A stretch of 64,000 nucleotides of DNA from Chiloscyllium plagiosum. Its lineage: Eukaryota. Position numbers and translations under genes: made by a program. A model generated the notes under the pieces. It saw only the letters and a list, made by a program, of their open reading frames with translations, made no database searches and was not told the DNA's origin. Below, in pieces: positions 191 through 60,849 of this stretch; within the stretch, counting starts at the first letter, position 1; each line of letters starts with the position of its first letter. The stretch covers positions 96,580,230 to 96,644,229 of the forward strand of contig NC_057718.1 in assembly GCF_004010195.1 (NCBI RefSeq), read 5' to 3'.

Positions 191-1185
191 TGGGCAATTT
201 AGCATGACCAATCCACTAGCCTGCATATCCCTGCACACTATTGGCAATTTAACATGACCAATCCACCCTAACCTGCACATCTGGACACTATGGGAAAGTT
301 AGCATGACAATCTACCCTAACCTGCACATCCCTGGACACAATGGTCAATTTAACATGACCAATCCACACTAATCTGCACATCCCTGGACACAATGGGCAA
401 TTTAGCATGACCAATCCACTAGCCTGCACATCCCTGCACACTGTTGGCAATTTAACATGACCAATCCACCTTAACCTGCACATCCCTGGACACTATGGGC
501 AAGTTAGCATGACCAATCCACCCGAGCCTGCACATCGCTGGACAGTGTGGGCAAGTTAGCATGACCAATCCACCCTAACCTGCACATCCCTGGACACAAT
601 GGGCAAATTAGCATGACCAATCACCCTAACCTGTACATCGGGACACTATGGGAAAGTTAGCATGACAACCTAGGTAAAAACAATGATTGCAGATGCTGGA
701 AACCAGATTCTGGATCAGTGGTGCTGGAAGAGCACAGCAATTCAGGCAGCATCCGAAGACAGGCAAAATCGATGTTTCAGGCAAAAGCCCTGTGAGATGA
801 AGGGCTTTTGCCCGAAACATCGATTTTGCCTGTCCTCGGATGCTGCCTGAATTGCTGTGCTCTTCCAGCACCACTGATCCAGAATCTGGTTTCCAGCATC
901 TGCAGCCATTGTTTTTACCCAATTTAACATGACCAATCCACTCTAACCTGCACATCTCTGGACACAATGGGCAAATTAGCATGACCAATCCACTAGCCTG
1001 CACATCCCTGCACACTATTGGCAATTTAATATGACCAATCCACCCGAGCATTTAATATGACCAATCCACCCGAGCCTGCACATCGCTGGACAGTATGGGC
1101 AATTTAGCATGGCCAATCCACCCTAACCTGCACATCTAGACACTATGGGAAAGTTAGCATGACAATCTACCCTAACCTGCACATC
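191..1185. repeat. Tandem satellite, ~51-52 bp unit derived from HE1 SINE internal repeat
   Basis: Unit GGGCAATTTAGCATGACCAATCCACCCTAACCTGCACATCCCTGGACACTAT recurs at ~51-52 bp spacing; interrupted at 673-919; runs into N gap. Confidence 0.9.
673..919. mobile_element. Fold-back Penelope-like terminal-repeat element with hammerhead-like core
   Basis: 119-bp inverted arms 673-791/801-919 with ~4 mismatches; centre GATGAA-GGGC-TTTT-GCCC-GAAACATC. Confidence 0.8.
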
Positions 1186-1685
1186 NNNNNNNNNNNNNNN
1201 NNNNNNNNNNNNNNNNNNNNNNNNNNNNNNNNNNNNNNNNNNNNNNNNNNNNNNNNNNNNNNNNNNNNNNNNNNNNNNNNNNNNNNNNNNNNNNNNNNNN
1301 NNNNNNNNNNNNNNNNNNNNNNNNNNNNNNNNNNNNNNNNNNNNNNNNNNNNNNNNNNNNNNNNNNNNNNNNNNNNNNNNNNNNNNNNNNNNNNNNNNNN
1401 NNNNNNNNNNNNNNNNNNNNNNNNNNNNNNNNNNNNNNNNNNNNNNNNNNNNNNNNNNNNNNNNNNNNNNNNNNNNNNNNNNNNNNNNNNNNNNNNNNNN
1501 NNNNNNNNNNNNNNNNNNNNNNNNNNNNNNNNNNNNNNNNNNNNNNNNNNNNNNNNNNNNNNNNNNNNNNNNNNNNNNNNNNNNNNNNNNNNNNNNNNNN
1601 NNNNNNNNNNNNNNNNNNNNNNNNNNNNNNNNNNNNNNNNNNNNNNNNNNNNNNNNNNNNNNNNNNNNNNNNNNNNNNNNNNNNN
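1186..1685. other. Assembly gap (500 N)
   Basis: Run of N. Confidence 1.
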
Positions 1686-1729
1686 AAATTCAAGAATGTG
1701 TTCTTACCGTTCCAAGCTTATTCAGTGAA

Positions 1730-1951
1730 TGTTGTGGACGAGCTGGTGTTGGACTGGGGTGGACAAAGTTAAAAATCACACAACACCAGGGTATAGTCCG
1801 ACAGATTTACGTGGAAACACTAGGTTTTGGAGCACTGCTCCTCCATCAGATTGAACCTGTACATCATTCTGATGAAGGAGAGATGCTCTAAAAACGATTA
1901 CTTTCAAATACACCTGTTGGTCTATAACCTGGTGGTGTGTGATTTTTAACT
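1730..1951. mobile_element. Fold-back Penelope-like terminal-repeat element (family 2)
   Basis: Inverted arms ~1765-1850/1868-1953; CTGATGAAGGAG at 1869; flanked by TTATTCAG(T/A)GAA duplication at 1718/1952. Confidence 0.75.
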
Positions 1952-1974
1952 TTATTCAGAGAAGGAATTGTAGT

Positions 1975-2400
1975 GAGCCAGGCAAGGAGATCCAAGAAAA
2001 GTGACCTAAAGCTTGGTCAAAGGGGTAAGTTTTAAGGAACATCTTAAAAGGAAAGAGAGTGGTAAGAGAGTTTAAGGAGGGAGTCCTGTGGAGGACATGA
2101 TGTTTAGATGTCTGAAGATAGAGACGCCACAGGATAGAATGAAGGACGTTGGTGATGCTCTGAAGTTAAGAAATGGAGGAATGGAAGGGTCTCGGATGGT
2201 TGTGGGACTGGAAGGTGCCAAACAGTCAACCCTCAGGAAAATGAGGGAGGGATGCCTTGGCATGGGGGACAGTAGGAGGCAGTCTAGAGCACACTCCAAG
2301 AACAGTGTGGCAGTGGGGTTGGGGATGGTGGCTGGCTGTCCAGACTAGAGGAATGGGAGATGCATGGGTGAGGGTGTGGGAGGGAGATGTGGCAATGGGG
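1975..2400 (-). mobile_element. Degenerate L2-type LINE fragment
   Basis: Resembles reverse-strand L2 3' region (AAAGCTTGGTCAAAG..GTTTTAAGG..AGAGAG..); boundaries approximate. Confidence 0.5.
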
Positions 2401-3063
2401 AATTGGTCACAACTAAGAGGGAGAGGGAGAGAGCGGTACTGCTCCGACTGTTGGTGCAAGCCAACTGGAGGTCAGGTCAATGCACGTGTGCAGACATGTA
2501 GTGGGCATGCATTAAGGAGCATTTTAACAGATTGACGAGAATCTGCATTACCTGCTGTGCTTTTCCAGGACCACTCTAATGTTGATTCCATTATCTGCAG
2601 ACTTCACTTTCACCACAGTGTACAGAGAGTCAGGGGCACTGTGAAACAGTCTGGGAGGCAGTGTACAGATAGTCAGGGCCACTGTGAAACAGTCTGGGAG
2701 GCAGTGTACATAGAGTCAGGGGCACTGTGAAACAGTCTGGGAGGCACTGTACAGCTCGTCAGGGGCACTGTGAAACAGTCTGGGAGCAGTGTACAGAGGG
2801 TCAGGGGCACTGTGAAACAGTCTGAGCTGTGCACAGAGAGTCAGGGGCACTGTGAAACAGTCTGGGAGCAGTGTAGAGAGTCAGGGGCACTGTGAAACAG
2901 TCTGGGAGCAGTGTACAGAGAGTGAGGGGCATTGTGAAACAGTCTGGGAGGCAGTGTACAGAGAGTCAGGGGCACTGTGAAACAGACTGGGAGCAGTGCC
3001 CCTGACTCTCTGTTCACTGCTCCCAGACTGTTTCATAGTGCCCCTGACTATCTCTACACTGCT

Positions 3064-3147
3064 GAAAATGTGTTGCTGGTAAAGCGCAGCAGGTCAGGCA
3101 GCATCCAGGGAACAGGAGAATCGACGTTTCGGGCATAAGCCCTTCTT
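3064..3147 (-). mobile_element. 84-bp Penelope-like terminal fragment inserted in satellite
   Basis: Minus strand GAAGAA-GGGC-TTAT-GCCC-GAAACGTC; flanked by 16-bp direct repeat CTATCTCTACACTGCT (3048-3063, 3148-3163). Confidence 0.8.
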
Positions 3148-3889
3148 CTATCTCTACACTGCTCCCAGACTGTTTCACAGTGCCCCTCACTCTCTGTACA
3201 CTGCTCCCAGACTGTTTCACAGTGCCCCTGACTCTCTGTACACTGGTCCCAGACTGTTTCACAGTGCCCCTGACTATCTGTACACTGCCTCTCAGTCTGT
3301 TTCACAGTGCCCCTGACGAGCTGTACACTCTCCGTACACAACTTCCAGACTGTTTCACTGTGTCCCTGACTCTCTGTACACTGCTCCCAGACTGTTTCAC
3401 AATGCCCCTGACTATCTGTACACTGCCTCTCAGTCTGTTTCACAGTGCCCCGACTCTCTGTACACTGCTACCAGACTGTTTCATAGTGCCCCTGACTATC
3501 TCTGCACTGCTCCCAGACTGTTTCACAGTGCCCCTCACTCTCTGTATACTGCCTCCCAAACTGTTTCACAGTGCCCCTGACTATTTCTACACTGCTCCCA
3601 GACTGTTTCACAGTGCCCCTCACTCTCTGTACACTGCTCCCAGACTGTTTCACAGTGCCCCTCACTCTCTGTATACTGCCTCCCAAACTGTTTCACAGTG
3701 CCCCTGACTATCTCTACACTGCCTCTCAGTCTGTTTCACAGTGCCCCTGACGAGCTGTACACTCTCCGTACACAACTTCCAGACTGTTTCACTGTGTCCC
3801 TGACTCTCTGTACACTGCTCCCAGACTGTTTCACAATGCCCCTGACTATCTGTACACTGCCTCTCAGTCTGTTTCACAGTGCCCCTGAC

Positions 3890-4046
3890 NNNNNNNNNNN
3901 NNNNNNNNNNNNNNNNNNNNNNNNNNNNNNNNNNNNNNNNNNNNNNNNNNNNNNNNNNNNNNNNNNNNNNNNNNNNNNNNNNNNNNNNNNNNNNNNNNNN
4001 NNNNNNNNNNNNNNNNNNNNNNNNNNNNNNNNNNNNNNNNNNNNNN
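3890..4046. other. Assembly gap (157 N)
   Basis: Run of N. Confidence 1.
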
Positions 4047-4332
4047 CTGTTTCACGGTGCCCCGACTCTCTGTACACTGCTCCCAGACTGTTTCACAGTG
4101 CCCCTCACTCTCCGTACACAACTTTCAGACTGTTTCACTGTGCCCCTGACTCTCTGTACACAGCTCCCAGACTGTTTCACAGTGTCCCTGACTATCTGTA
4201 CACTGCCTCTCAGTCTGTTTCACAGTTCCCCTGACTCTCTGTACACTGCTCCCAGACTGTTTCACAGTGCCCCTGACTCTCTGTACACTGCTCCCAGACT
4301 GTTTCACAGTGCCCCTGACTATCTGTACACTG

Positions 4333-5770: not shown

Positions 5771-5838
5771 TTCCTACACCATTCCCCCTACTTCCAAACA
5801 TAAAAATATGCAACCAGACCAGAGTTTACATTGCATTT

Positions 5839-7184: not shown

Positions 7185-8025
7185 TTTCTGATTCATTCAT
7201 CTGATGGGGGCATTGTTCTACAGGCTTAGCATTTATTACCCATGCCTAATTACCCATTACCACAGACTGGAACCACATGCAGACCAGACCGGGTAAAGAC
7301 AGTAAATTACCTTCTCTAAAGGAATAGGCTGGGGCTATTTTCCTTGGAGCGTTGGAGGCTGAGGTGTGATCTTATAGAGGTTTATAAAATCATGAGGGGC
7401 ATGGATTGGGAAAACAGACAAGGTCTTTTCCCTGCAGTGAGGGAATATAAAACTAGAGGGAATAAGTTTAAGGTTTTAGGGGAAAGATTCAGAAAGGATC
7501 TAAGGGGCAACATTTTCACACAGAGGATGTTGTGTGTATGGAATGAGCTGCCAGAGGAAGTGGTAGAGGCTGGTACAATTAAAAGGCATTTGGATGGGTA
7601 TATGAATAGGAAGGGTTTAGAGGGATATGGGTCAAATGCTGGCAAATTGGACTAGATTAGGTTGGGATATCTGGTCAGCATGGATAAGTTGGACCAAAGG
7701 GTCTGTTTCCATGCTGTACATCTCTTTGAGTCTGTGACATCAGTGTACCAGATAGAATTTTACAACAATTGACATTGTTTACATGGTCACTGTAAGGTTT
7801 TTAATTCCAGAGCATTTTTTTGTATATTGAATTCCAATTTGATAATCTGCCTTGGCAGAATTCACAACCACCTGATGATAGAGCCACACTTGAAAGCTAC
7901 TGATTCCAAATAAACCTGGTGTTGTGTGATTTTTAACTTTGTCCAGCCCAGTCCAACGCCGAGACGTCCAAATCAAAAAAGAACATGGGGTCGTGTTGAG
8001 ATCCAATTCGAATATGTCTCCAGGG
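7185..8025 (-). mobile_element. tRNA-derived SINE family 2, interrupted by CR1 (7323-7735) and Penelope-like end (7862-7975)
   Basis: Reverse-complement similarity to the full copy at 27769-28115 on both sides of the insertions. Confidence 0.6.
7323..7735 (+). mobile_element. CR1 (HER1-like) LINE 3' fragment
   Basis: ORF2 C-terminus RLRCDLIEVYKIMRG..FTQR..WNELPEEVVEAGTI and 3' UTR AAGGGTCTGTTTCCATGCTGTA. Confidence 0.9.
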
Positions 8026-8585: not shown

Positions 8586-8722
8586 AGCAAGTTTTGAGAA
8601 GATTTGTAGCTTAGGTTAAGGTTCTGAAGCTTCATCCGGAGGTTCACTGAAGATGTTACCTAGTATGGTGACAAAATGTCTGAAAATGAACCTTCCAGCT
8701 CTGCGAGCAAACTTACATCCAG
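8586..8722 (+). mobile_element. Penelope-like terminal element (family 3) with hammerhead-like core
   Basis: TTCA-CTGAAGA-T-GTTACC-TAGTAT-GGTGAC-AAAA-TGTC-TGAA; 14-bp direct repeat AACTATTGAGTCCT at 8572/8723; homologous to the end of the element at 11584-12045. Confidence 0.75.
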
Positions 8723-10119
8723 AACTATTGAGTCCTTTTGCGTCATATGTTAGATGCTGCACAGGAATAAGAGACTATCCATCGAGCCTCAGTGTGTCTG
8801 TTGTCTCAAAGAGGAGGCTAGGCTGGAGGAGCTTCTCACAAGTATAATGCTGAGGCAGCAAATATCCCACTGTTAAAGCAATAGTGGACTCTTCCCAAGT
8901 TTGACTGACAGAACCTGGTCGATGTCCCCTCCAGCAATTTGTGGATATTTTGTGGATTCGGAGTCTACAGCAAAGGCAAAATACTGTGGTTGGTGGAACT
9001 CTGAATTCAAGAAACAAAAATGCTGTAAATACCCTGGAGAGATTTCCAGTGAAGCTGGTCGGCATTCTTCAAACTGAGCGCGTCTTTCTATTTCCAAAGA
9101 TGTTTGCCAAATTGTCTGAGCATTTCTAGAAATTTCTGTTTCAGTTTTAATACTCAATTGTCGTCCATCTTTAACGATATGCAGAAAAATGGAAGCTGTC
9201 AGTCAAGACTGTTGCCTTTGCCATCCATTTAATTACTGAATTGTCAAATTTTATTCCATTCAGTGATTTAAGAACCTGCTTGATTTTAAGCTGATAGTAT
9301 CGAGAATGCCAAGACACAATGACAGCTTGTGGGGAGTAAGTGTCAGTCCAGTAATGGAGACAGGAGGACAGAGCAAGTGGGATTTTGACAGCGCCCTGGC
9401 AAAGATTCACAGGAATATGACGCATTTTGGGCCTGAACTAAACAAGATCAGAAAAGCCACTAACAACAACACGTTAAAAAGCTGTTGAAGCATCTAATTC
9501 TGGCTGGCAATTAGCAGTTGTGGTCAACCATCAATAGCTACAGGAGCCCAAGACACTAATTCCATGTCCACAAAGTTGTCAGTACTACTTCAGTCATGGC
9601 TCCATTTTAAATAAATGTCTATTCACTGATCTTGGTAACCTCTTGATTTCTGACTTGCAGATCTGCTTCACACCCATCCATCAATTTGTGGATAATTTGT
9701 GGATTGAGACGATTGTGCAGAGTCTAAAGCAAATTTTTGAACCCACATTAAATATTGGGCTTATTTTTTCAGATTTTTAAAAAATGAAATTGAACATAAA
9801 TAATTCAGGCAAGTGCCGACAAAATACATTGATTTTGGTATATACGTGGGTCTGGAGGGCAAATCAGCCTGAAATTATAGGCCTTCTGTTTTTTCTAATA
9901 GGTTTTTATTGTATCATTCTATGATTTTTCATTTCTCAAACATTTTCTGTTGTGTCATTTACAAATCCAGTGTCAACTATCTAACTAAATTCAAAATGTT
10001 TTAACTTCAAATTGATAAGTATTAGTTAGTTCCATGTATCACCAAGAAGAATAAGCATTGCATTAAATATCATTAGCAACCTTAAAGGTGCAAATTATTA
10101 CCATGGTGGGGGAAGGGGC

Positions 10120-11583: not shown

Positions 11584-12045
11584 AAAATACCTCGCAAGAG
11601 CTGTAACAAACATTACATTGGACAAACAGGCTGAAAACTAGCCACTAAGATACATGAACGTCAATTAGCCACAAAAAGTCATGACCCAGTCTCGCTCATT
11701 ACCTTACATACAGATGAGGAAGGACACAACTTCGACTGGGACAAGTCAAAAAGAGGTATGCACAAGAATTCCTAGAAGCATGGCATTTCAACCGGAACCC
11801 TATCAACAAACACATTGACTTGGATCCCATTTACCACCCTCTGAGAAAAAGAGCAGGAAATGACATCACCACAGGAAATGACATGACCACCCAAAATGCC
11901 AACACAAGGAAACCTAAACGCGTAAGTAGAAAGCAGGCCATGCTACCAGTACTTCATCCAGAGGCTCAATAATGATATTAACTAGTATGGTGACGAAATG
12001 TCAGAAAATGAAGCTTCCAGCTCAGCGAGCAAACCTATATCCAGA
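11584..12045 (+). mobile_element. Penelope-like element 3' part (GIY-YIG endonuclease remnant + terminal repeat)
   Basis: Translates KIPRKSCNKHYIGQTG*KLATKIHERQLATK..HTDEEGHNFDWD..EFLEAWH..INKHIDLDPIY; ends with decayed family-3 hammerhead. Confidence 0.85.
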
Positions 12046-12369
12046 ATTGATAAAAGCTATCTTGTGGTAAGAGTCCACTTGACATCCACTACACATCCAG
12101 AGAAAATGCATTCAAGATACTGATGCCATTGACCCCTATAAAATCATTCATGTTTTCAAGGTTATTAACTCCAGCAATATCAGTTCTCTTTTAAAAATCA
12201 AGGTTGGAGTGGGGAGGATGCAAAAGAAATGGTTCTCTTACTGGGAAAGATGGATGGAGGTGAAGCAGGTAAGAGTCCCATGCAAATCAGGAACCTAAGT
12301 GCCCAGGTGACTCCAATTGTGGACAGTCGGTGGTTTGGTGGGATGGGAAAGCAGGCCTAGTCCTAAGAA

Positions 12370-14210: not shown

Positions 14211-14236
14211 GTAAGAGTGAAGCCTCTTTCAACTCA

Positions 14237-14443
14237 GTTAAAAATCCCACAACACCAGGTTATAGTCCAACAGGTTTATTTGGACGCACTAGGTGGACAC
14301 AATCCTGATCCTCCACAACCACCTGGTGAAGGAGCGATGTTCCGAAAGCTATTGCTTCCAATAAACCTGTTGGACTATAACCTGGTGTCATGCGATTTTT
14401 AACTTTGTACACCCCAGTCCAACACCTGCATCTCCAAATCATA
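14237..14443. mobile_element. Fold-back Penelope-like terminal element (family 2)
   Basis: Inverted arms; CAC-CTGGTGA-A-GGAGC-GAT-GTTCC-GAAA-GCTA at 14320-14351; TCTTT(C/T)AACTCA duplication at 14225/14444. Confidence 0.8.
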
Positions 14444-15044
14444 TCTTTTAACTCATTGAGTGCAGGTTCTGAATGGGTTAAAATCTCAACCCTGTAATGA
14501 CAATGCCCCCACGCTAGGTACAGTGCTTACCTCCTCCATCACTGTGGTCCCTGTCAATCAGCCGCAAGCTGGAATCGAGGGTGAGAAACATCTTCAGATC
14601 AGGTTACCGTGAAGAATTCTGATTGCTCGCTATTCACACAGGGTGGTTGGAAGGTTTCAGTGTCCAGGCAAGGGTGTTGATTTACTGCAAAACGTTAGCA
14701 GGAGGTAATAGCAATGGGTTCTGTCCAGATTTAAAATATCAAATTGCATGTTGACGCTGCTCACATCTAGCAATGTAAATGATTAATCCATTGATATGCC
14801 AGTGGTGTTGCTTTCATCACATTAGTCTTACACAGGATTTAAGTAGTAACATTTCAAACAGTACAGTGAGGTTTTGATTTAAATGGCCTTCATATTGAAT
14901 GGGGACCTCTGTATTTCTGAATGAATTGCTCCTGTTAAACACCATCTTGCATCCACATTCATGAACAGATCTTCAGCATCATGCCAGAGCACTCAGCTCA
15001 TTCAAACATATTCCACTGTTTCTGATACACCATTCACTCATCAA

Positions 15045-15180
15045 GCAAAGGCAAAATACCGTGGATGCTGGAGATCTGAAACAAATGCAGCAAGTGCTGG
15101 AGAAACTCAGCAGGTCTGCCAGCATCTGCAGAAAGAAACAGAGCTAATGTCTCAAGCCCAGTATGATTCTTCTTCAGAGT
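15045..15180 (-). mobile_element. Penelope-like terminal fragment (family 4)
   Basis: GATGCTGGAGATCTGAAAC..CTCAGCAGGTCTG..TCTTCTTCAG (CTGAAGA on minus). Confidence 0.65.
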
Positions 15181-15259
15181 CCACTGCTCATTATCCATTG
15201 TACACCAATCAAGGATTGATTTGCTCAACATCGATATATTCCTGTTCTCGCCATTGTGT

Positions 15260-16152
15260 GGCCTAGAAGGCTGAGGAATCATTTTCCCAATTTTGCAACT
15301 TTGACCCTGAGATGCACTCCTGAACACAATACTCCCTGTTGCCAATACCAGCCGCTCTCATCACTGTGACATCACACAAGTCTATCCCTGCTTCAGCTTA
15401 TTCAGTCCATATCTGTATCAAGGACAACGTGAGGACTGCAGATGCTGGAGATCAGAGTCAAGAGTGTAGAGCTGGAAAAGCATAGCAGGTCAGACAGTAT
15501 CCGAGGAGCAGGAGAATTGACGTTTCGGGCATAATCAATTCCTGATGAAGGGCTTATGCCCAAAACATCGATTCCCCTGCTCCTCAGATGCTGCCTGACC
15601 TGCTGTGCTTTTCCAGCACCGCACTCATATCTGTATCTTGGCTACCTTTGGTCTCGCCTGTTGTAACGATTTCCCGACAGCACTCCTACCCTCTGGAAAC
15701 TTGAGACCATTGAAACTTCGCTGCCCACATCCGAAATCGCACCCAATCCCATTCGCCCTATGCTTGCTAGCCTCCTTTGGCTGCCAGCATAGCAAAACCC
15801 AAATATTCAATTCCTCATCTTTGTTCAGGAATCCCTTTGTGGTCTAGAACTTTCCCATCTCTGTGACCCCTTCCAGCCTCCAGACCTCTGAGGTTGCTGT
15901 GTTCCTCCATTGTTGAGATTTCCATCAGTAGAGTCAAACACCTTTGGCTTTTTCAACTTTAACTTATAATTGTCTCCCTAATCCTATTTGCCTCTCTATC
16001 TCTTTCTCTCTCTGCAACTTTGGGGACTCCTTAAAATCTAACTTTTTGCCCATGTGTATGCTCACTCTTCCATACCCCTCCTTTTGTCAATCCCTGTAGC
16101 CTTGAGACATTCTGTTTCATTAGAGGTGCTGCATAAATGCAATATTTGGTTG
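15260..16152 (+). mobile_element. Highly decayed L2 LINE 3' fragment
   Basis: Remnants of FDPEL.., PITPVLADLHWLP-like coding sequence and L2-type end AGGTGCTGCATAAATGCAA..TTG. Confidence 0.55.
15420..15625. mobile_element. Fold-back Penelope-like terminal element (family 1) inside L2
   Basis: Inverted arms; CTGATGA-A-GGGC-TTAT-GCCC-AAAACATC at 15542; perfect 12-bp duplication CATATCTGTATC at 15408/15626. Confidence 0.85.
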
Positions 16153-17978: not shown

Positions 17979-18186
17979 GTTCAGTAGAGACAGTGGTGCT
18001 GGAAAACCACAGCAGGTCAGGCTGCATTCGAGGAGCAGAAGAATCGACGTTTCGGGCATCAGCCCTCCATCAGGCTTTTTCCCGAAACATCAATTCTCCT
18101 GTTCCTAAGATGCTGCCTGACCTGCTGTGCTTTTCCAGCACCACACTCCAGACTCTGATATCCAGCATCTGCAGATGCATCTAATT
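17979..18186. mobile_element. Fold-back Penelope-like terminal element (family 1)
   Basis: Inverted arms; minus strand CTGATGG-A-GGGC-TGAT-GCCC-GAAACGTC; possible GATTTGT(A/T)CCC duplication at 17968/18187. Confidence 0.8.
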
Positions 18187-25546: not shown

Positions 25547-26979
25547 AACGTCAGATTATAATCCACCTTCTTGTTTTTGCTACAAAAGTGGATAACCTCA
25601 CATTGATCCACACTATACTTTACCTTCCATGCTTTCGCACTCCATCCCCAACCCCCTTCGTTCAACTTGACTAAATCACAGACTAAAGCATCTTGGTATC
25701 TCCCCTCCCAATTCACCCTGCCACCCAGCTTTGTTTCATGAGCAAACCTGGAGATATTACATTTATTCCTTCACCTTGAATTTGCTTCAAACAATCACTG
25801 TGACATTGAGGTGAAGAATCTTAACATTATTTAACTGAAGGTTAATTTGAGTTTATTAATGGATTTCCTGCTGACTGCATAATATGAACAGCCTTGAGAT
25901 ATGCTCTTTCCACAAAGGAAAATTTCTTTCTCCTATCAATTTTACCAAACCTTACATAATGTTAAGAGCTCTATTAAGTGGCCCCTCAGCCTTCTGGTTT
26001 TGAAATCATTACCACTAGCTTTGCAACCTCTTGCAAACTCAGCATTTACCTTTTTTTAAGAATCATCTTCACCCTCCAACACTGCAGGAGGGGATAGAAC
26101 TGGAATGTAGCACTCAGGGGAAAACTTAGCTTTTGCTTCATTGGAATGGCGGAACAGACTTGGAGGACCATATGACCTATTCCTCTTATTATTTCTTGTG
26201 TTTTCATGCAAGGTAATGACCTCTTTGTCACCGAAAGCCTCAATTCCTCACCTATTCCTCACTTGCCTTGGAAAGGTTACAACCAAACTGTTGTTTTCTC
26301 TACCTCCTGATGCTGCTTGGCTTGCTGTGTTCTTCCAGCCTCCTATTTGTCTACATCCGAATGGTAAAAGGCAGAAGTTTTTGTTTCCACTAATTTGAAG
26401 GCACAATCAAAAGTGCGAGTGGGGAAATCTCGCTTGCTAAATGGTCTCATGGTGACCTTTTGGTCCATGGCCTGCCTTAGTTGATAATGTTGCTCTGTGC
26501 AACTTCAGAGAACAAGACCTTAGGTTGAAACTTACAGCGCCCCTCCATAACAAGGGATATGGAAAAAGAGGTGAGACCATTGTGTGAGAATTCAGGCAAA
26601 GCCTTTCTCAATGTCAGTAGCAACTCTATGCATTTTCAAATAGAGATCTGGGTGTAGGGGCAAGTTGCTCACTGGGGAGCGGTGAATTGTCACTTGCAAT
26701 GAAGATGCAGTTGGACTAGTCTCTGTGAAGGACTTCCTGTACAATCTGGACAGAGTGTTCTGCACCATCCTGGTGTGCTGTGTTCTATACAACTGGCACC
26801 AGTAATAAGGCAATGTACTGGATGCTGAGGAACTGGGGAAATGGGAGCAGTCTTCTGAAGAGTTACATTGGACTCAAAGTGATTTTCTGATTTTATTTCC
26901 AATTTACAACATTCACAGTATTTGTTTTAATCCACAATTTAGCCCCAGATTTTCTGATGGTTAGTTCCAGTTCCATTCA

Positions 26980-28115: not shown

Positions 28116-28559
28116 AGTTCATACAAGAGACCAGTTTGTAGTGCTGAAAGTGGTTATAAAGACAGGAATGAATGTGGCTATCAAGGTATTCAAAGAGAAG
28201 GTGAGAATTTCACACCCAAATGAATGAGGAACATATCAAAATCGGCAGCAGCTCCATATGGTTGGTAAATCTTAATTTGAAGACGCTTTCAACATAATGC
28301 TTTAAATGTGTCCTGTCAATATTGGCTCCATGCATAACTGTGGCTTTCTGGGAATGTGTATTAAAGAAAGCGAATGTACACCAATCAGCACGAAATAGTG
28401 AATTAAAAAGCTACAGATGCTGCCTGACCTGCTGAGTGGTCCCAGCATTCTCCTGTGCTTTCTTTTTTGCTTTTACAACCTACTGGTGGCATAGCGAGTA
28501 TGTTAATAGGAAGCATCTTTTATCAAACCACTGCTATGCATCTCTATAAAAACATTGAT

Positions 28560-30372: not shown

Positions 30373-31110
30373 TTGTAGACAGACAGGAGGCTGGAAGAAC
30401 ACAGCAAGCCAAGCAGCATCAGGAGGTGCGGAAGTCGACATTTTACGTGTAACCCTTCAGGACTGGGATGGGTGTAGTGGGTGCTGCAGATAAAGTTGGT
30501 GGGGGGTAGAGTGATGAAGTGGTGATAGGTGAAGACAGGTAGAGGATACGACCTGGTTGGACAATGGGAGGAATGAATCCAGTTGGTGACAGGGAAAAGT
30601 GGAAGGGATGGGGAGGGGCTAGGAAGGGAGTCTGGGGATGGAGGGGGAGGTTATTTGAAGTCGGAGAACTTAATGTTGAATCCTCCGGGCTGTAGGCTGT
30701 CCAGGTGCAAGATGAGGTGTTGTTCTTCCAATGGGCGCTGTGGTTTGTTTTGGCAATAGAAGAGGCCAAGGTTGGTCATGTCAGAAAGGGAGTGGTTGGG
30801 GGAATTGAAATGGGTGGCGACTGGGACATCTGGTTGGCCCCCTGTGGACCCAGCTGCAATGCTCACCGAACCGTTCCCTAAACTTACGTTCGGTCTCCCC
30901 GATGTAGAGAAGACCACATCGGGAGTACTTGATGCAGTAAACTAGGTTGAAGGAGAGGCAGGTGAACCTCTGTCTCAACTGGAAGGTCTGTTTGGGGCCC
31001 TGGATGGAGATGAGGGCAGCAGGTTTTGCATCTCCTCTGGTTGCAGGGAGGTACCTAGGGGTTTGGTGGGGGGCGGTGGCATGAACCAAGGATTGTTGGA
31101 GGGAGCGGTC
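30373..31110 (-). mobile_element. Penelope-like element 3' part (GIY-YIG + terminal repeat)
   Basis: FTCLSFNLVYCIKYSRCGLLYIGETERKFRERFGEH and PVATHFNS..EEQHLILHLDSLQPGGFNI; decayed hammerhead AGTC-CTGAAG..AAAATGTC-GACT downstream. Confidence 0.92.
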
Positions 31111-31139: not shown

Positions 31140-31640
31140 TTGTATAAATTATTGCTGTTGAGGCCATATCTGGAGTACTGTGAACAGTTTTGGTCTTATT
31201 TCAGAAAGGACATCATTTCTTTGGAGGCAGTTCACAGAACATCCACTCGGATAATCCCCAGTATTGAGGGATTGTCTTACGAGCAAAGGTGAAACAAGTT
31301 GGGACTCTGCTCACTGGAGTATAGAAGGATGGCCGGTGATCCAATTGAAATATATCGGATCCTTACGGGGCTTTAGTCAATGCTGAGAGGATATTTCCCC
31401 TCATGGGAGAGTCTGGGTTCAGAGGTCATAGTCTCAGAATAAAAGGATGCCAATTCAAGACTGAAATGGGGAGGAATTTCTTCGCTTGGAGAGTTGTGAG
31501 TCTTTGAAACTCTTTGCCATAGAGGCTTGTGGGGACAGAGATTTAGATAGTATATTTGAGGTCGGGTGAGCTGTGATCCTCGTGAGTAGTGGAGTGGTTT
31601 CGAGGGACTGAATGGCTTACTCCACTTCTATTTCTCATGA
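31140..31640 (+). mobile_element. CR1 3' fragment
   Basis: GAGGCCATATCTGGAGTACTGTG..AGGAATTTCTTC..GAATGGCTTACTCC. Confidence 0.8.
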
Positions 31641-31785
31641 TGTGGAGCTGCTGGTGTTAAACTGGGTTGGACAAGGTCAAAAATCACACAAAAACAGGTG
31701 CTAAGAAGGAGTGAGGTTCTGAAAGGTTGTGATTTCAAATAAACCTGTGGGATGATAACCCAGTGCCATCTGATTTTTGACCTTG
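31640..31785. mobile_element. Fold-back Penelope-like terminal element (family 2), decayed
   Basis: GACAAGGTCAAAAATCA / TGATTTTTGACCTTGTC arms; TCTATTTCT(C/T)ATG duplication at 31627/31786. Confidence 0.7.
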
Positions 31786-38850: not shown

Positions 38851-38954
38851 CAGGAATGAAGAGCCTGAAACGTCAACTTTTCTGCTCCTTGGATGCTGCC
38901 TGACTTGCTGTGCTTTTCCAGCAACACACTCTCGACACCAATTAACCTGACAGC

Positions 38955-42785: not shown

Positions 42786-43494
42786 CAGGTATGACAGCAT
42801 TGGTGAAGAGAGGAACTGCATTAACTTTTGGAGCCCAGTGACCCTTCTTCAGAAATGTTAATTCTGTTTCTCTCTCCACAAATGCTCCCAGACCCGCTGA
42901 GTTTCTTCAGAAATTTCTGTTCCTATTTCAGATCTCTAGCATTCATAGTTCTTTGCTTTAATTTTAAAGAATTTCTTAAGCCCTGTCATCAAATGGATGA
43001 AATCTTTAAGCTGGCGTACATGATACTTTCTTTTGAGAATGGTATTTTGTGGCCATTGTTTATTAAAAGTTGAACAGAAGTATCTGTCATGTTTTCAGTT
43101 TAAATATCCTTCAGTCAGATTTCTTTTTAAATTGCCCTTCCTTGTTTTCCGTCAAGTATTGCAGCACCTGTCTTTCCGAAATCTACATGAATCAGTTGCA
43201 CTGGTGATCAGTGCAATTTTTAAGACAGTGCTAGGTGTTGAACAACCGTCGAACTGCCGCAGTTCAGAACACAAGCCTAAACCGGCCCTGTTTAGTTTAG
43301 CACCACATCAACTGATGAGCTATGTTAACCCTGTTAACAATTTCATTAAGTACATCCCCGGACCAGTGAAACCTCCCCTCAACAGTACATGTTTCTATTA
43401 GCCAAAAGTACAATCTTTGTATTAAAAAGTTACACAGTAGTAGCCCCTTTCCCCTGCTCCCAGATTTCATTCACTAAATAGATCCATCAACAGC

Positions 43495-45990: not shown

Positions 45991-46427
45991 TGGTCAGGCC
46001 TGGACTCAGGCTGGTGGTCACACAGGCAGCTAGTCACTTTAATGACCTGCTCTGAAATCCAAGAGTTGGGATGTCATTATCAGGTTGTACCGCACTTTGG
46101 TGAGGCCCCTTCTGGAATATTGTGTCCATTTCTGGTCACCCAGTTATAGAAAGATATTATCAAGCTGGAGAGAGCTCACAAGAGATTTATCAGGATGTTG
46201 CCGAGTATGGAACGTTTGAGTGAAAGAGAGGCCGGACAGGCTGAGTAAAAACTGAAAGAACTGTGGATGCTGTAAATTAGAAACAAAAACAGAAATTGCT
46301 GGAAAAGCTCAGCATGTCTGGCAGCATCTGTGCAGAGAATTCAGAGTTAACTCTTCGGGTCAGTGACTTTTCCTCAGAACCACAGTTCTAAGTGATTAAA
46401 GATTTAACAGCAATCCAGGCTTGAACT

Positions 46428-46739: not shown

Positions 46740-46898
46740 TGTTCAATATATCACATCAGTTGTATGACACTTTTACTATAAATTCTGTGCCCTATGTTCC
46801 TGCCCCACTAGTTACCTGATGAAGGAGCAGGTCTCTGAAGGATTGTAGTTCCAAATAAACCTGTTGAACTATAACCTGATGTTATGGGATTTTTAATT
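46740..46898 (+). mobile_element. Penelope-like terminal fragment (family 2)
   Basis: CCTGATGAAGGAGCAG..CCAAATAAACCTGTTGAACTATAACCTG. Confidence 0.7.
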
Positions 46899-47954: not shown

Positions 47955-49030
47955 GTGAGCACCATAGTGGTAATGTCACGGGGCTGATAACCGAGTAACT
48001 CAGGTAAATATCCTGGAGGGCCAGAGTTTGAATCCCATGTGGCAACCAGTCAGTCAACTAATTAATAAAACAAACAACTGCGGGTTCTGGAGATCTGAAA
48101 TAAAACAGAAAGTGGTGGAGAATTCACTGGGTCAGGGTTCAGAAGGCATTTACCAGGATGTTGCCAGGTATGGAGAGCTTGAGTTATAAGAAAAGGCTGA
48201 GACTTTTTCATTGGAGTGTAGGAGGTTGAGAAGTGACCTGATGGGCATTTACAAAATAATGGGAGGTATAGATAGAGTTAATGGTCTTTTCCTTAGGATG
48301 GGAGATTTCAAGACTGGGACCCACATTTTTAAGATGAGAGGAGGGAAATTTTAAAAAGACGTGAGGGGCAATGTTTAACACGGAGGATGGTTAGTGTGTG
48401 GATGGTTAGTGTGTGGAATGAAATTCCTGAGGAAGTGGTGGATGTGGGTACAATTACAAATTTTAATACACATTTGGATGGATACAGGGATAGGAAAGGT
48501 TTGGAGGGATATGGGCCAGGAGCAGGAAGGTGGGACTGGTTTAGTTTGGGATTATGGTCGGCATAGACTAGTTGGACTGAAGGGTCTGTTTCCGTGCTAT
48601 GACTCTGGAAAAACAGACGTAACACTTTGAGTCCAGTATCCATTTGTCAAAATTGAAAGTTGCTGAAAAATAGTATTTACGCTGATGATAGGAGTGGGGT
48701 TAAGATTGCTTGTGGATGCTTGTGGGTGTGGGGGAGGGACTGAGACGAATAGATGGAGGTAGTGCCCAGACTAATTATTGGTTTGAGTATGGAACTGTCA
48801 GCAATTGCTTAAAAATCCACTTGGTTTACTAATGTCCTCGAAACCTTAATTCAGAAAGTTCAGAAAAACAATCTGCCGTCATAGCCTGATCTGGCCTGTA
48901 TGTGACTCCAAACCCACAACAATGTGTTTGGCTCATAACTGTCCACTCAAAAGGCCAGGGAAGCTGCTCTCTTCAAGAGTAATTATGGCAACAAATGCAT
49001 AAGTACCCACCTTGTTAGCAACTACTACTT
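47955..49030 (+). mobile_element. SINE family 2 containing a Penelope-like end that contains a CR1 (48140-48606)
   Basis: SINE head to 48056 and body from 48780; ACTAATTA(A/T)T duplication at 48057/48770. Confidence 0.6.
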
Positions 49031-54920: not shown

Positions 54921-56369
54921 CGCTGTTTGGCTTTGCTGTGCATCATAAACTGGCCATCCAGCCAACTGAGCTAACCAGCCCTATGAGAAGTAGCACACAC
55001 TTTGACTGTTAATGAGCAGGATCTTTCAAATTGTACCCATGGGATATACTTTGTGATATCACATTAAGAGAGAACATGCTAATGAGCATATAACCAGGAT
55101 ATAGAGCATGTGTCCAGCAGCCATTAATTAGTTTCACAACACAATATGTAACATGAGGGAGTTATGACGGTGCTTTTTTCAACTAATCATAGTTGCTGAG
55201 CCTTTATACTGAATTTGTCCACTGAGGAAACCTGTAATATATCTGCAAAATAACATAACCTACATTTAATTTTACCAGTCCTGGTGTGAGATTGCTAAGG
55301 TTGTTTCAAACAAGCATAGAAACACAGCAGTGTACGATTTCTAAAATAATTAAATCCATTTAATTAAGCACAATCATTCTAATTTTTTATGTGAAGTAGA
55401 ACAAGGGAGTAACATAGACAACCTAAATGCCACAGCATCGAGATATTAATTGCAATAAGTCTGACAAGCTGAGTGTGAACTTTCGTCAGAAATTTTCCTT
55501 AAAATACCCTTGAGATTAATCATGCCAAAACAATGGGAGTTTTGAATTCCCTAACCATTATTTAGTAATTTCTGAGCCTGAAGCAGAAAAAGAGAGAGGA
55601 AAATAGTCTGTGGAAAAATGTAAGCTACTGGGGCTTTAGGTTGTAGCTATACTATTTAGATAACCTACTAATGGCCTGGCATTTCGATATTAAAATGTTA
55701 AGATTATAAACTGCAAGTGCTGGCTTTATTTAATTTTCTGTTATTACACATAATCCAAGAAACTCATTTACAAAATTGGCTGCTCTTTCTTAAAATAAAG
55801 CAAAGTTTCTGTGAACTGGTGAATTTTCTCCAGCCTTTAATTAATTTAAATTGACTGTGTTCGTAAAAGGTTAGCAAAACACCCAGGACACATCCTATAC
55901 ATTTCTTCAGTCTTCTCTTCATCACCAGCTTACCAAGTTCTCCAGAAGACTTTATTAAACAGCCTTGACATAAGCTTTCATTCCCATTTGCTTGTGTGCT
56001 TATAGTGGGAAAGGAAGCTGACTGACAGTCCAAAGTCTTTGAATCTTGTTCTTCTGCACTATGCTGCCAAGTACACTTTAAAATGGAATTTACTTCTACA
56101 AAGGGATTCTGTACAAGAACTCTTTAGGATTCCCATGTGTTTTGAGAACTCACGAGTTTCATAGAAAATACTCAAATGCCAAAAGATTGGCCTTGCTTGT
56201 TCAGATGGAAGAGGGTGACCTGGGTCATGGAAGGATAGTTCTCAGTGCTGTTTTAAGTTCAGAGAACTTTTGGAAGAGCAGTGCTGAAAGTACAAAGTCA
56301 ATCAAACACTTGCAGTGACCAACACCGAGTTCAGGGAATACAACTGGAAACCAAATGTCACAATAATGA

Positions 56370-56720
56370 GTCCTGAAAAGGACCACTGAACCCGAAATGT
56401 TAACTGTAATTTCTCTCCACAGATCCTGCTAGACCTGCTGAGTTTTTCCAGCAATTCTTGTGTTTGTTTCTGTTCTTGACTTCCAGCATCTGCAGTTATT
56501 GTGGTTTTTCCTATTGCAATATTCAGTATGTCAGAGAATATACACCCTTTAAAACATTCTTTGAAACCCAAATTGTTGACTAAGCTTTCGGTCATCTGAG
56601 CTGATCTAACCTTATGAAGGGCTTTCCTGATGAAGGACTTTTGCCCGAATCGTCGATTTTCCTGCTCCTTGGATGCTGCCTGACCTGCTGTGCTTTTCCA
56701 GCACCATTCTGATCTAATCT
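56370..56720 (+). mobile_element. Two Penelope-like terminal fragments (family 4 at 56370-56510, family 1 at ~56615-56720)
   Basis: CTGAAAAGGACCACTGAACCCGAAATGTTA and CTGATGAAGGACTTTTGCCCGAATCGTC cores with the GATGCTGCC/CCTGCTG tail. Confidence 0.7.
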
Positions 56721-57110: not shown

Positions 57111-58099
57111 CGAGAACTTCAGTGCTTATTTAAGAAAGGATATAACTGCATTTGCAGCAAATAGGGTTGAGTCAACTGCTTCAGGTCACGTAGGAGTTAC
57201 AGGGAAAGGTTGGACAGATAGCTCCTGTATCTGTTGGAGTTGAGAAGAATGAGAAACAGATAAGATCCTAGTGGGACCTGACAAGGTGGATGTTCAAAGG
57301 ATGTTTCTCCTTATGAAAGAGACTAGAACTAGGATATTTTTCTCCGTGTTACTCTTCCCTAGAGAGTCAGGGAAGCAAGATAATTGAATTTTTTTAAGGG
57401 TGAGTTTGAGCGATGTTTGACTAATAAGAGAACTTATGGGTATTAAAGGTAGATAAGAAAATAGAGTTGAGACCACCATCAAATCAACATGAGCTTACCA
57501 AATAACAGAACAGATTTGAAGGACCAGATAGCTTATTCCTATGTCTAGTGGCATATTCATAGATATGTTTCCCAGGGTCAAATTCAGATTGATAACACTC
57601 TTGTGAAGTATTTTGGAATATTTTATCATGTTAACGATGCTATGTAAATGCAAATTGTTGTTGCTATCTCCACAGACACATGAAAAGTGATTACTGAGGT
57701 ATATCTCATTATTGAAAACGCCTTGATACTTAAAGCCTCTTGAATCTATGGACGAAATGCAAAACTGAATCAGATTATTGGCTAAGACAGTCAGAGTTAA
57801 TACTGTGTCTGTGTTATATGACTCTACTAAGTTTACTGGTCCCTCAATTAACCTTTGCACTGACACGAAGAAGGCACAATATGGAAAATATCTACTTAGA
57901 CCAGCCTTGTCATGTCTGAAGAAGAGCCATAATGGACTAGAAATGTTAGCTCTATTTCCCTGTCCACAGATATGCCCAGACCTACTGAATCTCTCCAACA
58001 CTTTTTTTTTAACCCTGCCCTATCCACCTCTCCCAACTACTCCGAGTCACATGGTACAAAGATTTTACCCAAAATAAACCTTTGTTGAATTCTATGATA

Positions 58100-58430
58100 G
58101 GGCAGCATGGTGGCTCAGTGGTTAGCACTGCTGCCTCACGGGACCAGGGTTCGATTCCAACCTTGGGCGACTGTCTGTGTGGAGTTTGGACATTCTCCCT
58201 GTGTCTGCGTGGGTTTCTCTGGGTGCTCTGGTTTGCTCTCACAGTCCACAAAGATGTGCAAGTTAGGTGAATTGGCCATGTTAAATTGTCCATAGCGTTA
58301 GGTGCATTAGTCAGGGGTAAATGTAGGGTCGGGGAATGGGTCTGGGTGGGTTACTCTTCGGAGGGTCGGTGAGGACTTGTTGGCTGAAGGGCCTGTTTCC
58401 ATACTGTAGGGAATATATTCTAATCTAATC
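58100..58430 (+). mobile_element. HE1 SINE, full length
   Basis: A/B boxes, V-domain, (TCTAA)n tail. Confidence 0.92.
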
Positions 58431-58759
58431 TTAAAATAGCTGATAGCCTATTATGGCATGTAAGGAATCCATACAATTTATTTATATAAACATAATATTT
58501 TTAAATGTCTTCCTTTGGCAATTTTTCACAAAACTAACGTGGAAGGTAAGTTAAACGAAATATCAAGAGTTTTTATTTGATAAGACATTAAAATGTTAAC
58601 ACCATATACCTGTATAATGTAAGTATTTTAAGTGCTTGTAATAATTTTAAGATTTGAGGATTGCTTTGCCTCATAAATCATTCTTTGAAAGAACAGCTCC
58701 CAGAGAGATAGAGAGGAAAACTTCAAGTGCTTGCTTTTATTGCTCTGTTCTTTGCGTTT

Positions 58760-59372
58760 AGGAGTTTGGACTCATGTTGAGATTGTACAGGACATTAATG
58801 AGACCTCTTCTAGAATCCAGTTCTGGTCACTCTGTTATAGGAAGGATACTATTAAGCTGGAGAGGGTTCAGACGAGATTTACCAGAATGTTGCCGGGTAT
58901 GGAAGGTTTCAGTTGTAAATAGAGGCTGTTTAGACTGGGACTTTTTCATTGAAGCTCAGGAGGTTGGGAGGTGAGCTTATTGTAGTTTATGAAACAATGA
59001 GGAGCATAGAAAGAGTTAATGGTCGTTGTATTTTTCCTAGGATAGGGGAGCATTTTTAAGGTGAGAGGAGGGAGATTTAAAAAGGACGTGAGAGACAAAT
59101 GTTTTACACAGAGGGTGGTTTGTGTTTGGAATTAACTGCCTGAAGGAGTTGTGGATGTAGATACAATTGCGACGTTTAAAAGACATTTAGATAAGGACAT
59201 GAAAAAAGAAGATTTGGAGGGATATGGCAGGTGGGACTAGTTTAGTTTGGGATTATGTTTGATATTGGCTGGTTGGACTCCCCCTAGTCTTGAAATCCCC
59301 CATCCTAGGAAAAATACAACCACCATTAACTCTATCTACATCCCTCATTGTTTCCATGCTGTATGACTCTAT
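58760..59372 (+). mobile_element. CR1 3' fragment with internal inverted duplication
   Basis: QFWSLCYRKDTIKLERVQTRFTRMLPGM; 59278-59354 is an inverted copy of 58991-59050. Confidence 0.9.
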
Positions 59373-59374
59373 GA

Positions 59375-60022
59375 GAAAGGTCAATGCAATGATGGCATTT
59401 ATTTTGAAAGGACTTGAATATTAAAGTAGGGATGTACTTCTGAGGCTCTATAAAGAGCCTCAGAAATGTCAGACCACATTTGAGATATTGCTCAAAGTGT
59501 TGTGCACCATATCTCAGGAAGGACGTACTGGCCCTCGAGCATGTCCAGAAGAGATTCACAAGATTAGTCCCAGGAATGAAAAGGAACGTTTGAGGACTCT
59601 GGGTTTGTGTTTGATGGAGTTTAGAAGGATGATGGGGGATCTAATTGAAATATACAGAATACAGAATGGCCTGGACAGAGTGGATGTTGGGAAGATGTTT
59701 CCATTAGTAGGAGAGACTAGGACCCGAGCGCACAGCCTGACAGTAAAGGGAAGACCTTATAGAAGGGAGAGAAGGAGAAATTTCTTCAGCCAGAAAGTGG
59801 CGAATTCTATGGAATTCGCTGCCACAGAAGGCTGTGGAGGTCAGGTTATTGCGTATATTTAAGGTGGAGAGGGATAGGTTCTTGAGTATCAAGGGGATCA
59901 AGGGTTGCTGGGGGAAAGTGGGAGGATGGGGTTGAGAAGCCTATCAGCTAGGATTGAATGGTGGAGCAGACCGAATGGGCTAAATGGCCTAATTTCTGCT
60001 CCTGTCTCTTATGGTCTTTATG
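59375..60022 (+). mobile_element. CR1 3' fragment
   Basis: RLRTLGLCLMEFRRMMGDLIEIYRI..RRNFFSQKV. Confidence 0.9.
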
Positions 60023-60849
60023 ACTCTACACAGTGCAGAATGTGGGGCTATATGTGAGTGCCAGGCGTCTCTGGTAATTGGCTCACTGGTAATTGGATCA
60101 GGGTTTCAAGGTCAGGATGTGACTCAGCTTGCAAAACCCAAGTTGGTGAACTTGTGCATATGTTCCACAACCAAATAATGGGTTTCCAAATCATTCACTT
60201 CTAATGGAAGGCAAACAAAATGTGACTTTTAAATCTGATAAATCCACACATAAACCACATGGAAAACAATGCAGAAAAACAGGTCAATCTGAGAGTAAGA
60301 ACCAATAACTACAGCATGAAAGACGATGGCAACTTCCCCATTATAAAATGTGGGGAACATATTCAAACATTGCATCTTTTTTGAGCAACTCAGGAACTTG
60401 AGGAATCTACTTTCTTTCTCCATGGCAATGTCTTGATCAATCAGAGTCAACTTGCCAGTTGATCAGGACCTGACCTTCCTGTCATAGAAATTATTGTGAC
60501 CATTTGAAGAGTTGGCATTCTTGCATGTGTCCTGATGTATGCCGGATGACAGACTTCAGCAACATTTCCCTCTTACTCTGTAAGATTCCTAAATCTATTA
60601 GTGACACCTAGTGATGGAGAAAGAAGACTGCATTCAGCTTCGGCAGGAAAATGGGAGGAGAGTCTGCCAACTAATCCATAGATGCCCACACAAAATTAAG
60701 TGTGAACATTTTAAACTTGACTTAGATAAAGTTTTGTTAAGCAAATATATTAAGAGATTGCCAAAGGCAAGTATATGGAGTTAGGCACAAAATGATGGAA
60801 CAGCCTTGAGGGGCTGAGTGCTCCTTTTAAGATTCCGATTTTAAATTTC

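Follow-up and report, generated by a model that had tools for sequence, protein, structure and literature searches.

Overall, several lineages of Penelope-like retrotransposons very probably gave rise to the short hammerhead-bearing repeats described here, as dead-on-arrival 3′ ends (pseudo-LTR pieces). In the 64,000-nt stretch of DNA analysed (the window), we mapped 24 insertions covering ~6% of its length and recognized 21 hammerhead cores, or one per 3.0 kb, which bears out the density of ~1 per 3 kb given in a first-pass annotation. Seventeen of the 18 coordinates in that annotation coincide with C3 or N17 (within ~3 nt) of a motif in a multi-copy repeat. Many of these sites proved to be head-to-head pairs, and four cores had been missed (1849(−), 7872, 26267 and 31701). 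The five families proposed earlier stand as five motif types (A to E), but these represent only three unrelated sequence groups (A+D+E, B and C). Position 13110, one of the sites listed earlier, belongs to a type A copy that has lost stem III through a 10-nt deletion; the decayed type placed at 60530 was not confirmed, as it matches 9 of 12 core positions, its stem II is unconvincing and the window contains no other copy of it. The features are as follows.

673..919 (both strands): type A head-to-head pair, C3 at 794(+); the two arms are long, the inverted one starting at the bulged base preceding stem II; located in a 52-bp tandem array.
1727..1951 (cores 1849(−) and 1869(+)): type B head-to-head pair, tail solely on the minus arm; target duplication of 12 bp, 1 mismatch.
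2542..2612 (+): type A body lacking its hammerhead owing to truncation 3′ of the motif.
3066..3150 (−): type A solo copy, core 3150; flanking duplication of 16 bp, which may be trivial because the copy lies within a 42-bp minisatellite.
7862..7975 (+): type B solo copy, core 7872; stem II broken; 15-nt deletion 3′ of AATAAA.
8586..8725 (+): type C, core 8647 (G12 to A); inverted 41-nt tail (8586-8627) precedes the body; perfect 14-bp target duplication.
11900..12047 (+): type C solo copy, core 11969 decayed; C at C3 in >90% of public-contig depth.
13098..13222 (+): type A solo copy, core 13108; a deletion has removed stem III and the cut site.
14236..14442: type B head-to-head pair, core 14323(+), with tail; the minus arm is short (14292-14236) and starts in stem III; target duplication of 12 bp, 1 mismatch.
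14260..14280 (−): family-B poly(A) features; AATAAA at 14280-14275, non-templated poly(T)/poly(A) position ~14261.
15044..15182 (−): type D solo copy, core 15177.
15420..15626: type A head-to-head pair, core 15542(+), tail solely on the minus arm; perfect 12-bp target duplication; one long hairpin on folding.
17995..18176: type A head-to-head pair, core 18073(−), tail solely on the plus arm.
26258..26355 (+): type E solo copy, core heavily decayed (7/12).
28382..28465 (+): D-like body, starting in the 3′ side of stem II.
30378..30650 (−): type E 3′ untranslated C/T-rich part, then hammerhead and body; core 30460, stem I of 4 bp, predicted cut after 30437.
30651..31110 (−): frameshifted 3′ end of a Penelope-like ORF with C-x4-C-x2-C linker, GIY-YIG endonuclease and stop codon.
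31637..31785: type B head-to-head pair, decayed core ~31701(+), tail solely on the minus arm; target duplication of 13 bp, 1 mismatch.
38851..38938 (+): type A solo copy, starting in stem II.
42805..42962: type D head-to-head pair, core 42852(−); minus arm cut off by another repeat.
46250..46385 (−): type D solo copy, core 46377.
46755..46896 (+): type B solo copy, core 46816; ~60 nt of upstream sequence with TATAAA 39 nt before C3; 5′ boundary judged by eye.
48067..48137 (−): type D body lacking a hammerhead.
56366..56505 (+): type D solo copy, core 56373 with a small deletion.
56613..56708 (+): type A solo copy, core 56627, preceded by an 11-nt direct fragment of the core; target duplication of 14 bp, 1 mismatch.
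57914..58000 (+): type D solo copy, core 57916 complete; stem II broken.

With respect to the motif itself, 17 sites share the layout CUGANGA-N-stem II-GAAA-palindrome-NUH, and a single unpaired base sits between A9 and position 10.1, as in the minimal hammerheads of metazoan Penelope-like elements. Stem III is loop-less and palindromic, reading A-CG-U in types A, C, D and E (with the CpG often decayed) and A-GC-U in type B, and of the cleavage triplets predicted at first, GUC and CUA were recovered while type D reads GUU rather than UUA. The G10.1-C11.1 pair is present as G-C in 5/6 A, 2/4 B (the other two being G-T), 1/2 C, 1/4 D and 1/2 E rows. Stem I, for which ~3-5 pairs are typical of that class, consists of 4 contiguous pairs in the best C, D and E copies, is variable in B and is weak in A, where 2 pairs are followed by a mismatch. 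The covariation suspected from the first reading is evident at stem II pairs 2-4, at stem III (C-G versus G-C) and at stem I pairs 1-2, where the pairs differ between families in a compensatory way. These pairs were counted from anchored coordinates, because an unconstrained MAFFT alignment of all families shifted C and B out of register.

Consistent with the earlier impression that no copy is intact, only 57916 and 7872 among the 28 rows scored retain 12/12 core positions, and in both of these the G10.1-C11.1 pair and stem II are broken. The family-wide cores of A and B are intact in a loose-end consensus of public contigs (626-786 per site, from two species) and RNA reads, and the CUGANGA and GAAA boxes of B and D are also intact in the window-majority sequence. 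For type C, C3 is restored in >90% of public-contig depth and the other positions come from two window copies; the type E consensus, drawn from two decayed copies only, is weaker.

In searches of the window, a descriptor allowing at most 1 core mismatch and demanding a perfect stem of at least 4 pairs gave 13 matches, compared with 0-2 in each of five shuffles of the window. Its sole perfect-core match, 38067(−), is a member of no family, and a match at 50037-50067 (E 0.036) to a covariance model built from five A copies was likewise judged on inspection not to be a family member. With this type A model, B cores scored no better than E 1.1 and 3.9, and C, D and E were missed, and an Rfam scan of the window returned 20 matches up to E 10 with hammerhead absent among them. 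Downstream of the motif, types A, D and E have one body in common, as seen from nhmmer cross-hits and from 17 matches versus 0.03 expected. A metagenome scan with the shared body motif yielded 50 loci, all of which we regard as chance matches because similarity is confined to the matched 21-25 bases.

The Penelope origin claimed for these repeats is directly visible for type E, where the 3′ end of an endonuclease ORF lies immediately upstream of the 30460 core. The GIY-YIG domain matches Pfam PF01541 (E 3.6e-5, above cut-off), and both endonuclease pieces are 44-61% identical to the RT-GIY-YIG protein P0002 (47% for the C-terminal piece). The C-x4-C-x2-C linker, read in a frame shifted from that of GIY-YIG, also occurs in P0002, P0005 and P0009. 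This copy is truncated at ~31110, and a search with P0002 found no remnant of a Penelope-like reverse transcriptase (RT) in the window. A Pfam scan of the long frames that lie clear of satellites and gaps (36 of 75, with another 5 scanned separately) identified retroelement RT pieces only and no host gene. An ORF is attached in just 1 of the 24 insertions. Types A and D are assigned to Penelope by homology to E, and B and C by insertion anatomy only, there being no protein link for either and no ORF adjacent to any B or C copy in the window.

In terms of this anatomy, 5′ truncation, inverted partners, one-sided tails and variable target duplications were seen in insertions of types A to D. Of the 24 insertions, 8 have an inverted partner or inverted tail, and in 5/7 two-arm pairs the tail (~40 nt) is on one arm only. 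Target duplications measure 12-16 bp; scores of at least 9 were obtained for 7/21 insertions versus 1/300 random pairs, with boundaries set by eye after several duplications had been seen. The 5′ ends of copies vary widely, and no poly(A) tails were found at insertion ends. Insertions starting at the cut site were also sought: none of 25 aligned arms does so, and 24 extend 5′ of it, a count that is biased because arms were picked largely for possessing a hammerhead. A weak profile match that appeared to start there (13512, E 0.011) has stem III-like bases preceding its start.

Judged by sequence, the repeats are a further example of a known minimal-hammerhead system and not a new kind. Minimal hammerheads were described in pseudo-LTRs of metazoan Penelope-like elements by Cervera and de la Pena (2014, PMC4209133), and share with ours CUGANGA plus an extra base, G10.1-C11.1, GAAA, a two-base palindromic stem III and NUH, as well as the presence of multiple families in one genome, copies that are for the most part single and truncated, and opposite-strand pairs. 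The turtle row of Fig. S3 in that paper combines an AGCU palindrome with a nearby AAUAAA, like type B, and the rows of its supplement file 2 include no shark; our literature search on shark Penelope hammerheads found no paper. One core per 3 kb, decayed cores included, is far above the 4,000-9,000 descriptor hits reported there for coelacanth and Xenopus, although these counts are not like for like. Elements of the Neptune/Nematis EN+ clade (Craig et al. 2021, PMC8557442) resemble type E in a C-terminal GIY-YIG after a CX2-5CxxC linker, and our insertions generally in 5′ truncation, an inverted partner and a one-sided 30-40 bp tail, but differ from the window copy in that the latter is missing RT. 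PAc, a Poseidon element from the green anole (Frangieh et al. 2024, PMC11167929), likewise has two 3′ end points about one tail apart downstream of the hammerhead, and uncut RNA serves as its insertion template, RNA ends at the cut site not being seen. The ORF of PAc begins at stem II, whereas here the frame from the core ATG is short for A and B, and type E has a cysteine linker whereas Poseidon does not.

Family B has the additional feature of TATAAA, hammerhead and AATAAA within ~100 nt. In a poly(A) RNA run, 269 reads from family-B copies carry non-templated poly(T)/poly(A), which places a used poly(A) site ~29 nt behind the B cut site. Reads with an intact B core plus poly(A) are present, and family-B RNA that reaches this site is apparently uncut. 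Our literature search on poly(A) signals in Penelope termini found no paper.

This compact arrangement and the used poly(A) site, together with the lack of adjoining ORFs, might suggest that B and C are non-autonomous elements of retrozyme or SINE type, whose short RNAs are copied by Penelope proteins, rather than truncated remains of coding elements. Non-LTR retrozymes with type I hammerheads derived from Penelope-like termini are indeed reported, including from one chondrichthyan genome (bioRxiv 10.64898/2026.07.22.740005). Those retrozymes form head-to-tail arrays with a motif per unit, however, whereas such arrays are absent here: no tandem repeat in the window contains a core, and the nearest same-strand cores, 254 nt apart, differ in type. 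The highly variable 5′ ends and the insertion ends devoid of poly(A) also argue against this explanation, and RNA polyadenylated at the B site would stop short of both insertion 3′ end points. We consider it unlikely.

The same reads bear on whether family B could be a mobile, very high-copy cassette of hammerhead and poly(A) signal, such that transcripts ending there might cut off their own tails. Host RNAs ending at a B copy would carry an intact minimal hammerhead ~29 nt before the poly(A) tail, and were such RNAs numerous, pairing in trans via the palindromic stem III (or help from an element protein) would be possible. If true, family B would reproduce the rodent Clec2 3′ UTR arrangement genome-wide and in a dose-dependent form. 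Read support exists for the opening part of this proposal, a used poly(A) site on RNA with an intact core, but as a whole we rate it a long shot.

It is also very unlikely that the host retains copies as functional ribozymes or 3′-end switches, with transcripts cut in cis or by dimerizing in trans. Apart from the polyadenylated reads with intact B cores, what favours this is one version of a decay test, which compared the core with the whole downstream part after trimming edge columns and showed a better-kept core (12/180 versus 223/1708, p 0.012). This result counts against pure neutrality, though it is confounded by subfamily differences. A fairer test within families, against the conserved body block, revealed no preference for the core (20/213 versus 78/886, p 0.79). 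Of the selected RNA structure proposed initially, the covariation between families is borne out, but the selection is placed on the source elements and not on the copies in the window, whose core decays within families as fast as neighbouring sequence. The lack of an intact copy in the window points the same way. Moreover, the inverted pairs form hairpins that hide the motif (stem II probability is 0 in 5/7 folded contexts), no RNA depth was found over the unique flanks of 11.9-15.7 kb in the single informative run, and read starts and ends did not pile up at the cut site in one fragmented poly(A) run, itself a weak test. Energy folding of majority sequences, as monomer or dimer, gave no dimer hammerhead fold, which says little because nearest-neighbour models do not score the core. 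Most likely, the copies in the window are inert.

Finally, chance likeness within ordinary SINE/LINE debris, to which the missing Rfam match and the narrow reach of the type A model might be taken to point, has a negligible claim, being refuted in substance by the covariation (three unrelated groups have the core in common but differ in their stems, which compensate) and the link to a Penelope endonuclease, and opposed by the descriptor enrichment over shuffles and agreement with the published minimal-hammerhead consensus.

Taken together, these observations favour Penelope 3′ ends as the origin of the repeats, and a plausible course of events can be proposed. In the source element, the endonuclease stop codon would be followed after ~190 nt by a minimal type I hammerhead, as seen in type E and presumably in the others. 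Lacking a stem III loop, this hammerhead would be expected from other Penelope-like elements to cut weakly, and only as a dimer or with help from an element protein. The anatomy of the insertions and the PAc work (PMC11167929) suggest that the element protein nicks the two DNA strands 12-16 bp apart, and that reverse transcription is primed on uncut RNA at two sites that lie 55-110 nt behind the cut site and are separated by ~40 nt. Synthesis would usually end early, inside or just before the hammerhead, after which two cDNAs may be joined head-to-head or one kept, resulting in the solo pieces and the inverted pairs with a one-arm tail. The copies then decay, core included; stems would covary between families because selection on the fold acted on active source elements.

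These repeats extend the motif class of 2014 to a cartilaginous-fish-type genome, in which it is very dense, and display the Penelope insertion signature cleanly, with its two end points, a one-sided tail, inverted joins at the hammerhead and uncut templates. For repeat annotation, they caution that an isolated intact ‘ribozyme’ in a genome of this sort is usually a copy of a repeat. On the role that hammerheads play in Penelope elements, still open according to PMC8557442 and PMC11167929, testable leads come from the 5′ ends and inversion joints that gather at the hammerhead and from the poly(A) site close behind it in family B.

Overall, the first-pass annotation was correct in recognizing hammerhead repeats, which are of an already known kind and fall into motif types A–E around a minimal core (CUGANGA-N-stem II-GAAA-palindromic stem III-NUH). 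When the named sites and extra sites from a self-search were all scored against hammerhead numbering, 17 of its 18 repeat sites were borne out, and the 21 cores spanning C3 (start of the conserved core) to N17 (cut-site base) amount to one per 3.0 kb, in line with its estimate of ~1 per 3 kb. Its remark that no copy is undamaged also holds, with none of 28 scored rows intact. The 24 insertions, with boundaries set by eye, total ~3.9 kb, or 6% of the window. A descriptor (at most one core mismatch, perfect stem of at least 4 pairs) returned 13 sites versus 0–2 in five shuffles, and an Rfam scan of the window gave no hammerhead family matches. The site near 60530 stays unconfirmed: it retains 9 of 12 core positions, stem II is unclear, and it is single-copy in the window. 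This CTGATG-led stretch (60532), for which a sixth type was originally proposed, may represent a degraded copy from a family with no other member in the window. Further repeat features observed were as follows.

191–1185: 52-bp tandem array next to a 500-N gap; a near-perfect 260-nt type A palindrome (661–931) is inserted into it
2616–5096: 42–43 bp minisatellite with several switches of block orientation and an assembly gap inside; a type A copy is inserted at 3066–3150
8969–9149: very decayed D-like head-to-head pair (two inverted arms of one insertion), core unreadable, outside the 24 counted
10067–11180 (+) and 22323–24352 (+): frameshifted LINE-type RT remnants (Pfam RVT_1)
13424–13677: old repeat with raised public-contig depth; faint A-like body at 13512–13473 (−)
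19832–20190: 176-bp tandem duplication, two copies, 95% identical
4, 5608, 25273, 46573: further multi-copy LINE-end families
7467, 50705, 51491, 59055, 63398: further multi-copy SINE-like families

With respect to family structure, the five or more families originally claimed stand as five motif types but form only three sequence groups (A+D+E, B and C). In profile searches A, D and E cross-match one another, while B and C are unrelated to A/D/E and also to each other; the downstream body common to A, D and E contains one degenerate 21-mer, with 17 matches versus 0.03 expected. Type A has a GGGC/GCCC stem II, and type D a longer stem II and a GUU triplet. As had been asserted, the stems vary with pairing kept: pairs counted from anchored coordinates differ compatibly between types in stems I, II and III, a pattern rather than a statistic at 2–6 copies per type. 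Specifically, at stem II pairs 3 and 4 type A has G-C and C-G, type B has A-U and G-C, and type C has U-G and A-U; stem III has C-G in A versus G-C in B, and stem I opens with C-G in type E, A-U in type C and U-A in type D. By eye, the body at 15585–15617, as in other A, D and E copies, resembles a branch point, pyrimidine tract and CAG, and this shared sequence reads like a splice acceptor; introns near termini occur in Penelope-like elements (PLEs).

The proposed Penelope origin is carried for type E by an adjoining coding remnant and for the other types by insertion anatomy. About 190 nt separate the type E copy at 30460 (−) from the stop codon upstream of it, which closes a 5′-truncated, frameshifted ORF end (31110–30651). 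That ORF end encodes a GIY-YIG domain (Pfam, E 3.6e-5), preceded in a different frame by a C-x4-C-x2-C motif. Its database relatives include P0002, an RT plus GIY-YIG protein with a matching linker, and Craig et al. (PMC8557442) describe a cysteine linker of this type as marking Neptune and Nematis PLEs. A search of 14 relatives against the window found this ORF end as the sole PLE coding remnant. Seven head-to-head pairs were observed, and in 5 of them the ~40-nt tail (an end segment) is restricted to one arm; in a further insertion only a 41-nt tail is inverted. PMC8557442 describes inverted partners, and tails confined to one side, as the PLE signature. Flanking duplications of 12–16 bp accompany 7 of 21 tested insertions versus 1 of 300 random pairs, with boundaries set after some duplications had been seen and one case inside the minisatellite.

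In terms of insertion mechanism, 24 of 25 aligned arms extend 3–95 nt 5′ of the cut site, one begins 3′ of it and none begins at it; possession of the motif was the main ground for picking these arms, and there are also a few shorter bodies. Of the 24, 19 pass the cut site by 15–37 nt, ending within or just before the motif. Such 5′ ends beyond the cut site fit copying from uncut RNA templates. Copying of this kind has been shown in vitro for the anole Poseidon element; there, reverse transcription starts internally at two positions one tail length apart, each DNA strand is nicked and then extended, hammerhead cleavage requires protein, and RNA ends at the cut site were not seen (PMC11167929). 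Reverse transcription might stall at the self-complementary motif, or two cDNAs might join through it. Several inverted joints have 2–4 nt overlaps and others 4–19 nt of filler; palindromes at inverted joints are noted for rotifer Penelopes (PMC3846280).

Four public runs were aligned to 11900–15700 at 80% likeness, of which run X22 contributed no reads. DNA contig sets under the window's species label and from a second species gave 242,425 and 203,447 aligned contigs. Their summed depth, which is no copy number, reached 1e5 to 5e6 on repeats versus ~4–35 on unique flanks, showing that the repeats are very highly abundant. The loose-end consensus is an intact type A motif at 13132 (786 and 689 contigs) and an intact type B motif at 14292 (626 contigs, 371 RNA reads). 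At a decayed type C copy, >90% of the depth has C at C3 among the differences listed.

Within the copies, differences from consensus are equally frequent in the core and the best-kept body block (20/213 versus 78/886, p 0.79). A contrary test, with edges trimmed, found the core better kept than the whole downstream part (12/180 versus 223/1708, p 0.012), which we attribute to differences between subfamilies and to copies having been picked by their cores. Head-to-head pairs are predicted to fold as a single long RNA hairpin (z −13), with a stem II probability of 0 in 5 of 7 inverted-pair contexts folded. Same-strand cores are spaced 254 nt to 15 kb apart, the closest two being of different types and both damaged.

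The motif itself is defined by Cervera and de la Pena (PMC4209133), whose PLE consensus is identical to that of the window repeats; their paper describes several families per genome, motifs that are mostly single and sometimes lie on opposite strands, and low activity confined to dimers. A 2026 preprint (bioRxiv 10.64898/2026.07.22.740005) documents hammerhead repeats together with PLEs in a single chondrichthyan, whose families may overlap those of the window, and cleavage of only 1 of 9 frog dimers tested. Among the papers searched, none addressed the present families or the use of poly(A) sites at Penelope ends.

Such use is indicated for family B by X21, a single-cell poly(A) run of which ~2% was read. 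Among 6,600 aligned reads, 29 reach at least 99% identity and 98% continue into other sequence, and the reads therefore derive from other copies; depth is absent in 14 of 30 bins, and no pile of read starts or ends was reported in this ~2%. In 269 reads, poly(T) stands directly before 14260, at the family B minus arm (14260–14292). On the B sense strand this point falls 13–15 nt after AATAAA, a signal kept in 5 of the 7 B arms covering its position, and a GT/T-rich stretch without an A-run follows. Adding the median loose lengths of 67 and 50 to the 33 fitted bases gives 150 nt, the length of one read, and an intact, uncut B core is therefore probably present on these very reads; the loose part is presumably barcode plus oligo-dT. 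The 2014 alignment shows AAUAAA behind the motif in turtle and Xenopus rows, labelled there only as AU-rich (PMC4209133), and in Clec2 the cut falls after the stop codon but ahead of the poly(A) signal (PMC6765202). Judging by the 269 reads, family B appears to supply a poly(A) site that is in use, ~29 nt downstream of the hammerhead cut site.
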